Notes: generated by a model from the sequence alone, not told the origin. Shown: positions 2,320-7,873, numbered from the stretch's first letter. The stretch is DNA of 7,973 bases from a virus (IMGVR_UViG_2645727743_000016:1-7973), one strand, 5' to 3'. Numbers and translations are program-made.

Positions 2320-2805
2320 TTAGTTTTGCTGTTCTATTTTAAGCTTGATAGTTTCATACAAAACAATAGTTGCGCTTGTTTTACATAATTCCCGGCTGTC
2401 ATACGCGCGAGACCAATAACACAACCAGTTCTCGAGATCTTCTCGAGTATAGGTTTTGCAGGCCAGTCCCTCTGCCATTTCCACGATTTCATCGCCTGGT
2501 GCTGTTAACTCATAGCCATTCAACAACAAGAAGACGTAACCAGCCATCATAGCTGTTCGTTTGTTCGCATTAGCAAACGGATGATTCTGAATCAGACTTT
2601 CAATCAATACCGATGCCAGTACAAACATGTCATTAGTCTGTTCATACCATCGAACCATGCTGGGACGGGCCTGAGAAGAACTTAAGTTATCTGGACTCAG
2701 AACACCAACGGGCTCATCTGGCGTCTGTAATTCAATTAGGGAATGATTGATTTCAACAAGATCATCAACCGTAAGGTAATGCACTCCTTCAACAATCTCA
2801 GCCAT
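2320..2805 (-). CDS. doc: Fic/Doc family toxin (death-on-curing-like)
   Basis: Translation contains HPFANANKRTAMMAGYVFLLLNGYEL, matching the Fic/Doc motif HxFx(D/N)(A/G)NKR. ATG at 2803-2805 (the ORF track starts 3 codons earlier at a TTG, 2814). Small partner gene ends 18 nt upstream. Confidence 0.82.
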   Translation of the reverse strand: MAEIVEGVHYLTVDDLVEINHSLIELQTPDEPVGVLSPDNLSSSQARPSMVRWYEQTNDMFVLASVLIESLIQNHPFANANKRTAMMAGYVFLLLNGYELTAPGDEIVEMAEGLACKTYTREDLENWLCYWSRAYDSRELCKTSATIVLYETIKLKIEQQN

Positions 2806-2823
2806 AGAGTACAATACCCATCA

Positions 2824-3218: not shown

Positions 3219-3374
3219 TTACTCCTCAGGTTCGTAAGCTGTGAAGACAGCGACCTCCGTCTGGCCGGTTCGGATTCGTACCTCGCAGAGGTCTTTCCTC
3301 GTTACCAGTGCCGTCACTATGACGGTTAAACAGATGACGATAAGGGCGATTAACATCGCCTTTTGCTGCTTCAT
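3219..3374 (-). CDS. hokD: Hok/Gef family type I toxin (51 aa), HokD/RelF-like
   Basis: Translation MKQQKAMLIALIVICLTVIVTALVTRKDLCEVRIRTGQTEVAVFTAYEPEE matches HokD/RelF as I recall it (not searched). ATG at 3372-3374 with AAGGAG about 10 nt upstream. An in-frame upstream ATG at 3429-3431 would give a 70-codon form. Confidence 0.88.
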   Translation of the reverse strand: MKQQKAMLIALIVICLTVIVTALVTRKDLCEVRIRTGQTEVAVFTAYEPEE

Positions 3375-3633
3375 AGCCTGCTTCTCCTTGCCTTTCGGCA
3401 CGTAAGAGGCTAACCTACATGTGTTCAGCATGGATTGAGCCTCAGATTAATGTTAAGCGTCTTGCAGGACGCGTAATGTTAACTGGGGCTTTTCTCTATC
3501 TGCCTTTTGGTGTTCATGCCTGAGACAGATAGCCTCAAGCACCCACAGTCATTCTACTTAACTAAGATTTCCCTGCAAACCGTTTTTGTCCGGCACAGTA
3601 AATATCCAACTAAACCAATAGCGTTCGCTGTAT

Positions 3634-4993: not shown

Positions 4994-5285
4994 TGGCTGT
5001 CTCCTGAAAAATCACCGCATGCCCCAGTTTCTCCGCCAGCGCCAGTTCTGCCTTAGCGCCTGCTGACCGCTGCCAGCCTTTCAGCATGTAAATCGCATCC
5101 ACACAACGAATCATTGCCATGCAAATATCCATGTAGTGCGGCTGTGTCAGCCCGTCCGGAAGTACTGCCGGGTTTAAGACGGTATGCCCTTCCCGTTTCA
5201 GTTCCTCTTCTGCCTTGTGAAACGCCTCACGGTTGAAATTTTCATACCCCGTCATTGGACCGGCGATATAAACCCTCACCCTCAC
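4980..5285 (-). CDS. DUF4406 protein (nucleoside 2-deoxyribosyltransferase-like fold)
   Basis: N-terminal VYIAGPMTG...NFNREAF is the hallmark of DUF4406/NDT-like proteins, recognised from memory. GTG start at 5283-5285 overlaps the upstream stop as GTGA; AGGAGG lies 7 nt upstream. Confidence 0.72.
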   Translation of the reverse strand: MRVRVYIAGPMTGYENFNREAFHKAEEELKREGHTVLNPAVLPDGLTQPHYMDICMAMIRCVDAIYMLKGWQRSAGAKAELALAEKLGHAVIFQETASVQD

Positions 5286-5698
5286 GCCATCACCTCCTGA
5301 AAATTACCCTGATAAAACGCCAGCACACGCTGCATAACCTTGCTTTTCCGGCACTCGAGACAGATTATGTTCTGACGCCTGTCGTAGTGGCGTATCTCTC
5401 CATCTGGTAATGAATAAATCAGGCCAGGGTCGCTCTTCTTTTTCGCTGCACCTTTAGACATCTCTTTATGGGCTTTTATCCAGTCTTTACGTGCCTGCTC
5501 AGAAGGGAATATTCCATGCCCTGAACCATATACAACACCACTGTCTACCAGTTCTTTCGCCAGAACTTCAATCAGATGTCTCGTCGCCCCTGTTTCATTT
5601 TCCAGTTGTTTACGCGTTTTCCTACCATCTCTGCGTACCAGTTCCACAATACGCGCCTTTACTTCTTCCCGTTGTTCGGGAGTAAAAACTTTTACCAT
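5282..5698 (-). CDS. Hypothetical phage protein (138 aa), possible N-terminal winged-helix-like segment
   Basis: ATG at 5696-5698 with a strong AGGAGG 5 nt upstream. Stop overlaps the start of the DUF4406 gene. N-terminal segment TRKQLENETGATRHLIEVLAKELVDSGVV looks helix-turn-helix-like; this is inference. Confidence 0.65.
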   Translation of the reverse strand: MVKVFTPEQREEVKARIVELVRRDGRKTRKQLENETGATRHLIEVLAKELVDSGVVYGSGHGIFPSEQARKDWIKAHKEMSKGAAKKKSDPGLIYSLPDGEIRHYDRRQNIICLECRKSKVMQRVLAFYQGNFQEVMA

Positions 5699-5712: not shown

Positions 5713-6459
5713 TTACTTCACAACCCTCAGGTGTCTGACATTCGAACGCCAGCTCTCCCAGTTAAAATTCACCCAGCGACCACCGTTCATGACCATGCGG
5801 TCCATCACACGCTCGCCAAGAAGCGTACTCATCGCTACGTGGTTCAGGTTCGTCAGCATTCCGACACTACGCATCGAAGCCGTTCTGCGGTCGACTATCT
5901 GGTTCAGTGTGACCTGCTCGTTGCGCGTATCCCGCTGCATTCCGATTTCATCCAGGACAAGCAGGTCAACATCACACAACCCCTGTAAAAATTTTTCGCC
6001 TGAGTTTTTGTTGTCGTAGCTGTTGTGTAACGCCAGCATCACATCAGCCACCGTTATCACAATCACGCTGCGACCTTTCGCCAGAAGATGATTGCCAATG
6101 GCGGCTGCAAGGTGGTTCTTTCCGGTACCCGGCTTACCGCTGAACACAAAATTCGTGCACCCGGTCATCAGTTCGTCAGCGATGGATTTTGCCTGGCTCA
6201 GCGCATGTTTTTGCCCGTCGTTCTGCACCTGATAATTCGCAAACGAGCATTTGCTGTGCAGAGGCTGGATGCCCGAACGATTCAGGATTTTTTCCACCCG
6301 CAACTGGCGATTCTGGCGGTTGATCTCCTCGCTACGTTTTCGCCCTTCAGCCAGTTGCCACTCGCGCCACTCATCCACTGTCCGGTACGGCGCGATTACA
6401 TGCTGCGGGGTCAGCTTACGGATACGCTCAAGAACACCACCTGCCGCGATATTTTTCAT
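5713..6459 (-). CDS. DnaC/IstB-family AAA+ helicase loader (phage replication protein P analogue)
   Basis: Walker A GKPGTGKNHLAAAIG and Walker B LLVLDEIG in a 248-aa ORF. ATG at 6457-6459 with GGGGG about 10 nt upstream. Lies immediately downstream of the O-like initiator gene. Confidence 0.9.
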   Translation of the reverse strand: MKNIAAGGVLERIRKLTPQHVIAPYRTVDEWREWQLAEGRKRSEEINRQNRQLRVEKILNRSGIQPLHSKCSFANYQVQNDGQKHALSQAKSIADELMTGCTNFVFSGKPGTGKNHLAAAIGNHLLAKGRSVIVITVADVMLALHNSYDNKNSGEKFLQGLCDVDLLVLDEIGMQRDTRNEQVTLNQIVDRRTASMRSVGMLTNLNHVAMSTLLGERVMDRMVMNGGRWVNFNWESWRSNVRHLRVVK

Positions 6460-6465
6460 GGCCCG

Positions 6466-7431
6466 TTACCCCCTGAACCCCGGCGGAATTTCGGTATCCG
6501 GCTCAGAAATATGATTCACACAACGCTGTACAGACGAACGCCCCAGGCGGATAACCAGTTCATCCCATTTTCCGCGAAGCTTTGACGGACTCATGATATT
6601 TTTTACCCAGAATGGATCCCGCTGCGCCCGACCAAACATTTCACAAATTTGTCTGTGAGTTCTGCCATCCAGCATCCGCATTGTGCGCACGTCGTTGGCC
6701 CATGCGGTCCAGTTGGGTTCTTTCGGTCGCGAAATCTCGCCATCATCGCTGGCGGCCTGCTCGTAAAGACTCACGATTCGCCCCCAGATCCACTGCGCAC
6801 ACGCCAAATCTTCCTGGTTGCCCCACTGGCGTTTTTTTGCACTGAACACAACCGCGTCAGGGTGTCGGGTTAAAAAATCCTGTTCAACCGTCTGCGGGTC
6901 CGGTTGCGAAGCTTCCGGACGAGAAGTGTTTTTATTCTCTGTAGTAATCTCTGTTGTATTCTCTGTAAGATCATCAGGCCATTTTGACCCGATGACATTG
7001 AGTCGTTTTGAACCAATGGAACGTGCCATTTTGGCCTCTTCCATCGTGTCATTCTGACCTGATGGAGCAGCGCATTTTGACCTGATGGATTCGCTCACTT
7101 TGCCACCATCTAAAAGCTCGCTCTCGTAATTAATCGTGTAAAAATTAGTCATATCACGCTTTGATTTATTGAGCTTTTCGCAACGCAAAAGCCCCAGCGT
7201 TTTCAGACTGGCAAATGCGCGTTTTAACGTTGACTCTGACCAGAACGGGAACTGCTCCAGCCATTGTTCTGTTGTGTTATAAATCCAGCGAACACCATCA
7301 CATTCCATGCCGGAACCGGTATCTCTCAACCAGTAGTGCAGTTGTTGCAAAACAATGGCTTCGTTTAAGCCAATTTTCATTGCCAGCTGCGTGTTTATAA
7401 CCAGTGGGCGTTCAGCAAAAAGAAGACTCAT
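6466..7431 (-). CDS. Phage replication initiator / replisome organiser (lambda O-like)
   Basis: N-terminal MSLLFAERPLVINTQLAMKIGLNEAIVLQQLHYWL resembles phage replisome-organiser N-terminal domains. An iteron array and an AT-rich tract sit in the central linker-coding region. Preferred start is ATG 7429-7431; the ORF track's 7485 start is 18 codons upstream. Confidence 0.82.
   Translation of the reverse strand: MSLLFAERPLVINTQLAMKIGLNEAIVLQQLHYWLRDTGSGMECDGVRWIYNTTEQWLEQFPFWSESTLKRAFASLKTLGLLRCEKLNKSKRDMTNFYTINYESELLDGGKVSESIRSKCAAPSGQNDTMEEAKMARSIGSKRLNVIGSKWPDDLTENTTEITTENKNTSRPEASQPDPQTVEQDFLTRHPDAVVFSAKKRQWGNQEDLACAQWIWGRIVSLYEQAASDDGEISRPKEPNWTAWANDVRTMRMLDGRTHRQICEMFGRAQRDPFWVKNIMSPSKLRGKWDELVIRLGRSSVQRCVNHISEPDTEIPPGFRG
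6927..6970. repeat. AT-rich tract with three TCTCTGT repeats at 12-bp spacing (origin unwinding element candidate)
   Basis: TCTCTGT at 6936-6942, 6948-6954 and 6960-6966 within gtgtttttattctctgtagtaatctctgttgtattctctgtaaga. Directly adjacent to the iteron array, on the side lambda-type origins carry their AT-rich region. Confidence 0.5.
6980..7093. repeat. Iteron array: five direct repeats at about 23-bp periodicity (candidate origin of replication inside the O-like gene)
   Basis: Repeats begin at 6980 (CATTTTGACCCGATGACATTG), 7004 (TCGTTTTGAACCAATGGAACG), 7027 (CATTTTGGCCTCTTCCATCG), 7050 (CATTCTGACCTGATGGAGCAG) and 7073 (CATTTTGACCTGATGGATTCG). Approximate consensus CATTTTGACCYGATGR. Confidence 0.6.
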
Positions 7432-7873
7432 AATTCCATCCAGCTTTTTGTTGGTATTGCTGTCGATACGCAAGCTTGAAAGCAATTGCTTTTTCTATAA
7501 GTTCGTCAGTTTCACGATCTACAACGGCAGGATCTGCAAAAAGCAGTCCGGATTCCACCACATCGCCATATTCTTTATTTAACCCGGCGATCATGTACGT
7601 AATACTTTTTCCATCACTGATCTCACGATACAACCTGAAATCACTAATCCGGATAGCCTCCATAATTGCAGGCACTAGCGCTGTGAACTTTTCACGCTTA
7701 TCCCTGGTGTCGATAGCCTTCCAGCGTTCGAATATCTTCACTCGATTAACGCTAAGCGCTCGCTGATCAACCGCGCCACCTTCATATGTGACACGCTGAA
7801 CATCGATGTTCGGGCGCTCTTTCAAAGCCCAGAATGCTTCAGTGATTAATATCGTCGCCTGCTCCTGTGTCAT
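7412..7873 (-). CDS. Hypothetical phage protein (153 aa) immediately upstream of the replication initiator
   Basis: ATG at 7871-7873. Its 3' end overlaps the preferred O-like start by 20 nt, out of frame. No recognisable motif; occupies the position of cII/YdaT-type regulators in lambdoid prophages, which is synteny inference only. Confidence 0.6.
   Translation of the reverse strand: MTQEQATILITEAFWALKERPNIDVQRVTYEGGAVDQRALSVNRVKIFERWKAIDTRDKREKFTALVPAIMEAIRISDFRLYREISDGKSITYMIAGLNKEYGDVVESGLLFADPAVVDRETDELIEKAIAFKLAYRQQYQQKAGWNYESSFC

Follow-up and report, generated by a model that had tools for sequence, protein, structure and literature searches.

A putative replication origin of the lambda kind within the initiator gene of an Escherichia coli prophage

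The origin of phage λ (oriλ) consists of iterons and an A+T-rich tract located centrally within the initiator gene O (PMC7466680, PMC3349717), and the O protein has been reported to bind single-stranded DNA of the A+T-rich region (PMC7466680). In the λ record J02459 the iterons lie at 39034-39118 with spacings of 20, 24 and 23 and encode residues 117-145 of the 299 amino acids of O, and after them comes the least stable 40-mer of the gene, which is A-rich (dG -43.0, 78% A+T, 0.73 purine on the coding strand). We analyzed a 7,973-nucleotide (nt) stretch of viral DNA (IMGVR_UViG_2645727743_000016:1-7973, hereafter the window, numbered from its first letter) which carries on its minus strand, at 6466..7431, a gene for an O-like replication initiator of 321 amino acids. 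An iteron array and an adjoining A+T-rich tract were found inside this gene, and the region 6895-7119 is very probably the vegetative (theta-mode) origin of a Rac/lambdoid-type E. coli prophage, embedded in its own initiator gene. That this would be an origin of the lambda kind, in a version that appears undescribed and in an initiator family that is unannotated but very common, is comparatively well supported by the comparisons reported here.

Five clear iterons with the core GGTCAAAATG on the minus strand were detected, together with a weak sixth copy. A repeat search placed the core GCCATTTTGACC at 6978, 7025, 7048 and 7071 (spacings of 47, 23 and 23), and a degenerate core at 7004-7013 filled the 47-nt gap. 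The five cores occupy 6980-89, 7004-13, 7027-36, 7050-59 and 7073-82 with spacings of 24, 23, 23 and 23, and the weak sixth core, at 7096-7105, is a better match in two relatives (L002 and L003). Repeat search, lag scan, dyads and diversity together delimited an array of six units of about 23 nt at 6973..7111 with the minus-strand consensus cCATcaGGTCAAAATGnCncGaT, which on the coding (minus) strand runs from the weak It1 (7089-7111) through It2 (7066-7088, CCATCAGGTCAAAATGCGCTGCT), It3 (7043-7065), It4 (7020-7042) and It5 (6997-7019) to It6 (6973-6995, TCATCGGGTCAAAATGGCCTGAT). An earlier reading of the same DNA from its sequence only (the sequence-only reading) had described five direct repeats of about 21 bp at 23-bp spacing at 6980-7093. 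The five copies and their spacing held, while the unit was corrected to about 23 nt and the array to about 6973-7111. It3, It4 and It6 each contain an internal dyad with 8-9 of 12 pairs about the same center, found by a center search for which the null frequency of at least 8 pairs was 0.043.

The repeat array is highly non-random, far beyond chance. Self-matches of the whole window were scored at all lags from 10 to 60, and the best was at lag 23, starting at 7004, with 56 of 92 positions matching. In 500 shuffles the mean score was 42.2 (standard deviation 1.3) and the maximum 47, so that none reached 56. In 1000 shuffles a cluster of five core matches spanning at most 110 nt of a single strand never arose, a weaker test than the lag scan because its pattern was taken from the data itself. 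The significance of the iterons resides in their clustering and period only and not in the number of cores, as GGTCAAAATG with up to two mismatches occurred 9 times in the whole window against 10.1 expected, which is not above chance. Neither Tandem Repeats Finder (TRF) nor the lag scan found a second repeat array or comparable element in the window.

Downstream of the iterons on the coding strand lies an A+T-rich, purine-skewed tract (6927..6972, minus strand), delimited by stability, diversity and codon usage, which encodes the linker DLTENTTEITTENKN and is the proposed DNA-unwinding element. It contains three CAGAGA(W)TAC motifs at 12-nt spacing (TRF period 12, 2.7 copies, score 50), seen on the plus strand as TCTCTGT at 6936, 6948 and 6960, and these are the only three copies of TCTCTGT in the entire window. 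The sequence-only reading had noted three such repeats in an A+T-rich tract adjoining the iterons, and this description was borne out, with a G+C fraction of 0.295 at 6927-6970 as compared to 0.479 for the window, except that the tract, at 70%, is only moderately A+T-rich. No other 40-mer of the initiator gene is less stable than 6929-6968 (dG -44.3, z 2.5), and the coding strand of the tract is 0.67 purine. A single GATC (6969..6972, unstranded), the only one in 6800-7300, sits at the junction between the iterons and the tract, and the junction sequence GATGATCTTACAGAG is identical in relatives. A Dam methylase is encoded adjacent to or near the initiator gene in several relatives.

The layout closely follows oriλ. 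The sequence-only reading had proposed λ-ori architecture within the initiator gene, and position, order of iterons and tract, and homology of the C-terminal domain to λ O all agreed with that proposal. The window iterons encode residues from about 108 to 153 of 321, placing the putative origin mid-gene in its own initiator as in λ. The iterons number four to six in oriλ, in the Shiga toxin (Stx) phages 933W and P27 (six-iteron origins) and in the window alike, with dyad symmetry and distances of 20-24 bp, some two helical turns. In the direction of transcription the tract of lowest stability comes after the iterons in both λ and the window, and it is purine-skewed and A+T-rich and encodes a flexible linker. 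The iteron center TCAAAA(C/T)G of the window resembles λ TCAAAACG. The two also differ in several respects. The presumed N-terminal DNA-binding domain of the window protein is not detectably related to that of λ O, and the iteron arms differ. The partner gene encodes a DnaC/IstB-like AAA+ loader and not a protein of the λ P type, and the window initiator carries a DnaT-like tail which λ O lacks. The tract of the window is built of the 12-nt repeated CAGAGA(W)TAC rather than of A-runs and has 70% A+T as compared to 78%.

DNA-level constraint was assessed by codon position in 16-17 orthologues that share both domains and are 91-97% identical. The relatives returned by a first scan of viral contigs all had N domains 95-100% identical in protein sequence, and they are fit for this diversity test and not for deep comparison. 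Diversity at first, second and third codon positions was 0.024, 0.015 and 0.172 in the N domain and 0.028, 0.031 and 0.197 in the C domain, as compared to 0.049, 0.048 and 0.040 in the iteron array and 0.000, 0.019 and 0.010 in the A+T-rich linker. The drop at third positions was significant (Mann-Whitney p 7e-6 against the N domain and 1e-8 against the C domain), and the codon periodicity of substitution was lost in the origin stretch while the N domain showed a normal coding pattern. Sliding windows of 30 codons gave third-position values of 0.024-0.055 within about 6895-7119 and 0.13-0.23 on either side, and this trough (6895..7119, unstranded) is the best estimate of the origin footprint. 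The iteron cores fall in all three codon phases, encoding SKC, GQND, AKMA, SKR and SKW in turn. As the 23-nt period is no multiple of 3 and all three phases are used, the iterons are not a protein repeat. Residues 109-174, which the origin region encodes, were predicted to be disordered by AlphaFold (pLDDT below 35), consistent with DNA rather than protein being the object of selection there. The sequence-only reading had placed this DNA under both coding and cis-acting constraint. This was borne out by the collapse of synonymous diversity at about 6895-7119 and by fixed codons in the linker, but constraint on the protein looks weak in a region predicted to be disordered. Beyond the tract, at 6850-6939 on the minus strand (residues about 165-194, starting KNTSRPEASQPDPQ), substitutions were again without codon periodicity, with a diversity of 0.055 at third and 0.059 at first and second positions. 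The origin footprint may extend past the tract here, as oriλ extends past its A+T-rich region, or this may be unconstrained linker.

Codon usage in homologues bears on the tract. After the iterons CAGAGA occurs on the coding strand at 8.57 per kb as compared to 0.21 per kb, a 40-fold enrichment, and its copies are spaced by 12 nt in 114 cases and by 11 nt in 7. The linker encodes T-E-x-T units in which Glu is specified by GAG 137 times and by GAA 4 times, whereas the ratio in the rest of these genes is 495:604, and the first Thr is ACA in 118 of 118 instances (118:0) against 192 of 921 (192:729) elsewhere. This ACA GAG bias is present separately in Enterobacterales, Firmicutes and other Proteobacteria. 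Copies of CAGAGA in other frames or at an 11-nt period were found in Staphylococcus caprae, Limosilactobacillus and Paenalcaligenes. The fixed ACA GAG codons together with the frame- and period-shifted copies indicate that the motif was selected as DNA, and by this argument the TCTCTGT/CAGAGA repeat is conserved as DNA. The element spans Enterobacterales to Bacillus, Staphylococcus and Lactobacillus and stands behind many iteron specificities and several helicase-recruiting C domains. We propose tentatively, at somewhat less than even confidence, that the CAGAGA(W)TAC units might go beyond generic A+T-rich filler and act in cis in a sequence-specific manner, in a class of phage and prophage origins that would be very widespread and undescribed.

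The comparison was widened to 78 homologues of the N domain, one genome per species. In 67 of the 78 the best repeat lag directly after the N domain was 21-24 nt, with a mean of 41.8 of 66 positions matching, as compared to 8-9 of 78 and about 29 of 66 in flanking and shuffled controls. The 67 range from Enterobacterales to Firmicutes and include Citrobacter, Pantoea, Proteus, Pseudomonas, Comamonas, Gilliamella, Geobacillus, Staphylococcus and Limosilactobacillus. The sequence-only reading had asked whether the repeats might be absent from orthologous initiator genes, and they are present both in the orthologues and in these 67 distant homologues. Iteron cores vary with the lineage of the N domain (GGTCAAAATG, GGGCAAATTGCAC, GGGACAATTTGTCCC and GGGAAACCC), as would be expected if the N domain reads the iterons. 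An exact 26-mer of the tract, CTTACAGAGAATACAACAGAGATTAC, occurs in at least 120 viral contigs, preceded by at least six types of iteron array and followed by two unrelated C domains. The cores upstream of it include GGTCAAAATG, a GGTCAAAATGACC variant, GGGCAAATTGCAC, GGGACAATTTGTCCC and others that stand behind N domains homologous to this one but diverged. In Stx phages, GGGAAACCC iterons behind a distantly related N domain are combined with the same 26-mer and an unrelated C domain. N domains 98% identical in protein sequence also turned up in contigs filed as metagenome-assembled genomes of Veillonella parvula, Bacillota and Collinsella (L209, L210 and L273), which are most likely mis-binned Escherichia contigs.

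The alternative that survives best holds that the A+T-rich patch is mainly a recombination joint at which lambdoid phages swap N-terminal (iteron) and C-terminal (helicase-recruiting) modules by homologous recombination, its conservation resulting from exchange and not from unwinding. The initiator gene shares with O genes of numerous Stx1 and Stx2 phages only a 40-nt patch (window 6933-6972, L004 2001-2040, L289 1801-1840), which is 97.5% identical, homology breakpoints in E. coli genomes fall at window 6932/6933 and 6972, the edges of the tract, and the same 26-mer stands behind the six or more iteron types and before both C domains. From this the patch looks like a mosaic joint between an origin-specificity module and a helicase-recruitment module. 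A prophage of O157:H7 (L288 1799-2761) provides a different mosaic, in which the same C domain is joined to an unrelated helix-turn-helix N domain with repeats of TTGACCCGTCAAAT at 15/30-nt spacing that encode TVDPSN units. Its initiator gene lacks the CAGAGA motif and has three GATC in its A+T-rich part, and its homology to the window begins just past the A+T-rich tract, indicating that the iterons travel with the N domain. Here the breakpoint thus lies after the tract, in a gene without the motif, which does not fit a joint at the patch. A joint also leaves the iterons unexplained, and the near-identical motif in Geobacillus, Staphylococcus and Limosilactobacillus, where the flanks have about 50% protein identity, makes recent exchange implausible. 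As a replacement for the origin reading we consider the joint unlikely. It is compatible with an origin as a secondary consequence, and the CAGAGA tract may double as a homology patch for shuffling origin-specificity and helicase-recruitment modules.

A second alternative places the true origin elsewhere and takes the array as a binding site of the initiator or a regulator that serves control, by autoregulation, copy-number handcuffing or exclusion of related phages. Plasmid iterons have such control roles, and cloned λ iterons inhibit the replication of incoming rep-λ phage (PMC3349717). However, a low-stability tract accompanies the array in every case, in the λ order, no second array or similar element turned up elsewhere in the window, and the same sites are the origin in λ, so that control would be additional to an origin function and not an alternative to it. 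We regard this explanation as improbable. The least credible explanation is that the repeats are a by-product of a low-complexity, repetitive protein linker with no cis-acting role, for although the 12-nt CAGAGA repeat is in frame, encodes T-E-x-T units and lies with the repeat region between two folded domains, the 23-nt iteron period is out of frame and yields different peptides in three phases, third positions vary 4- to 17-fold less than those of the flanking domains whereas in the iteron array the first and second vary more, the codon bias of the linker holds in three taxonomic groups, and CAGAGA is retained in another frame or at 11-nt spacing in seven loci.

Several points weigh against the region 6895-7119 being an origin. 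The low diversity around the linker could partly reflect recent recombination and not selection. The tract has merely 70% A+T, and an equally unstable segment lies on the opposite side of the iterons at 7131-7170. The latter showed plain coding constraint (diversity 0.000 at first and second and 0.225 at third positions), indicating no extra DNA-level constraint there. The N domain had no detectable similarity to the N domain of λ O by BLASTP or to any Pfam family, including Phage_rep_O, and the structural support for a winged helix comes from a low-confidence model and weak Foldseek E-values. The prophage in this strain might be defective, and a search of the accessible library of papers found no description of this origin type or of the motif string.

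The initiator protein belongs to PHROG 391, 'replication initiation O-like' (E 6.6e-95). A mechanical list of open reading frames (ORFs) extended its frame to a TTG at 7485, and the start adopted here is the ATG at 7431, as in the 966-nt RefSeq coding sequence of the near-identical prophage in E. coli E200139, where the product is named 'hypothetical protein'. Neither half of the protein had a Pfam match, even at E 10. The family has 4212 database homologues at E <= 1e-5. The closest 120 lack a Pfam domain of their own, a few fused products show only domains of neighboring genes, and almost all source names read 'hypothetical protein'. The family is effectively unannotated in reference databases.

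The N-terminal domain (residues 1-108, 7108..7431, minus strand), delimited by homologues and an AlphaFold model, is the presumed iteron-binding domain, and its homologues are found in phages and prophages of Enterobacterales, Pseudomonas, Bacillus, Staphylococcus and Vibrio. The model was built from a 20-sequence alignment and is of low confidence (mean pLDDT 55). In it the N domain has a winged-helix-like pattern of helices and strands at a pLDDT of about 60-73. The best matches to this domain in a Foldseek search of the PDB were the N-terminal domains of DNA-bound plasmid Rep proteins, 5kbj_H and 4pql_B, both weak (E about 8e-3; TM score normalized to target 0.55-0.57, for a model of mean pLDDT 55), and we take these fold matches as a weak hint that the domain may be a winged helix which binds the iterons. 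Both structures belong to RepA proteins of the RepA_N theta plasmids of Firmicutes (pSK41, pTZ2162). In RepA_N plasmids the iterons sit centrally in the rep gene, with a winged-helix N domain on one side and a host-specific C domain on the other, a three-part plan that the window gene would share. Unlike those replicons, the window element belongs to a phage or prophage, and its initiator had no RepA_N match by sequence or in Pfam. Plasmid records contained no clear instance of the O-like initiator gene as a plasmid replicon.

The C-terminal half is where the relationship to λ O is evident. By BLASTP it is 35% identical to λ O (J02459) over 148 amino acids (E 2e-27), and the homologous C-terminal domain is encoded at 6538..6900 on the minus strand. 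It is followed by a DnaT-like tail, VNHISEPDTEIPPGFRG (6469..6534, minus strand), identified by phmmer against the PDB and by NCBIfam. Its final 17 residues are similar to the very C-terminal end of E. coli DnaT (VNTVSEPDSQIPPGFRG). The phmmer matches were 2ru8_A, 6aep_A and 9zbt_D (E 0.008-0.03), other PDB sequence matches being weaker and at chance level, and the NCBIfam DnaT model was matched at E 0.0028, far below its cut-off. The order of a DnaT-like tail and then a DnaC-like gene mirrors the host dnaT-dnaC operon. Among 98 related loci the tail is present in 71, and 54 of those 71 have no DnaC-like gene downstream. No helicase or loader gene follows the homologous initiator gene in PhiR42_1, mEp460_4F5 and Klebsiella phage ST147-VIM1phi7.2 (L001 3001-3966, L002 1804-2784, L003 1585-2499). 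Downstream of it are LygF and a methyltransferase in PhiR42_1 and, directly, a Dam methylase in ST147-VIM1phi7.2, and in mEp460_4F5 a hypothetical protein stands between it and a Dam methylase. Such 'O-only' modules were reported in 34 of 314 lambdoid phages, with none studied and their working not understood (PMC12315714, 2025). Phages with 'O-only' modules might use the DnaT-like tail to gain access to the DnaB-DnaC loading route of the host.

By analogy with oriλ, dimers of the initiator N domain would bind the five or six dyad-symmetric, 23-bp-spaced iterons and form an O-some-like complex. The resulting stress would melt the adjacent low-stability, purine-skewed tract with its three CAGAGA(W)TAC motifs, and the C-terminal half of the initiator, with its λ-O-like domain and DnaT-like tail, would bring in host DnaB by way of the phage DnaC-like loader. 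Transcription from an early rightward-type promoter would read through the origin. Binding by the initiator, melting of DNA at the CAGAGA tract, recruitment of the helicase and activity as an origin are thus inferred from the likeness to described systems.

For the CAGAGA units themselves the iteron plasmids offer a comparison. RK2 (TrfA) and F (RepE) likewise have an iteron array next to an unwinding element with short repeated motifs. Their origins differ in lying outside rep and in carrying DnaA boxes, whereas the window repeats are intragenic, with no DnaA box (TTATNCACA, up to one mismatch) within 6513-7391 and no integration host factor (IHF) consensus near the repeats. Known models of single-strand motif recognition are Rep on the 13-mers of RK2 and DnaA on DnaA-trios. 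Speculatively, the CAGAGA units could be a repeated single-strand recognition motif for the initiator, or a mark for helicase loading. Plasmid Rep binds one strand of the 13-mers of the unwinding element sequence-specifically (PMC4081077), which, together with the binding of λ O to single-stranded DNA of its A+T-rich region, suggests how the CAGAGA repeats might be read.

The initiator gene lies between cro/YdaT-like genes and a DnaC-like gene, all of the following being on the minus strand. Upstream is a YdaT-family gene (7412-7873). Directly downstream is the gene for the DnaC-like AAA+ helicase loader (5713..6459), which matched Pfam IstB_IS21 (2.6e-18), PHROG 50 'DnaC-like helicase loader' and, in NCBIfam, PRK12377 with 499 bits, above the cut-off, and the DnaC model with 316 bits, below it. 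A DUF977 gene (5282-5698) comes next. The Rac prophage of K-12 has the same neighborhood of Cro-like, YdaT-like, initiator, DnaC-like (YdaV) and DUF977 (YdaW) genes and has been reported to carry an active origin, oriJ (PMC3945230). The possibility that the window holds the K-12 Rac oriJ/YdaU replicon itself was considered and rejected, since YdaU is annotated as DUF1376 and the window protein has no Pfam match; the two were set apart by annotation and not by alignment. In E. coli E200139 a prophage located next to potC matches the window at 99.8% identity, and 3070 of 5426 complete E. coli genomes have at least a partial match to the window. Its cultured relatives are the phages PhiR42_1, HannyBb and mEp460.

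A very common initiator family thus appears in RefSeq under 'hypothetical protein', with no Pfam domain and with its origin unannotated. Repeats of 21-24 nt plus CAGAGA units directly after the N domain would provide an annotation rule, and recognition of such origins could allow E. coli prophages, Stx phages included, to be mapped by type of replication specificity (incompatibility). Fragments of the region would also be candidate origins for use in vectors or in phage defence ('origin decoy'). As the fixed codons of CAGAGA can be recoded with the protein unchanged, the sequence needs of the unwinding element could be separated from those of the protein.

Other features of the window lie apart from the initiator gene. 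A scan with Rfam matched only sok in the window (118.9 bits), away from the repeats. It belongs to a hok/sok type I toxin-antitoxin locus at 3219-3431 and 3369-3544 on the minus strand, where the Hok-like ORF is hokD by the annotation of a near-identical genome. The annotation of the near-identical record also gave a toxin gene of the Doc (death-on-curing) family preceded by a small ORF (2320-2814, minus strand) and, further on, a gene for RusA at 88-453 and one for a DUF968 protein at 454-1512.

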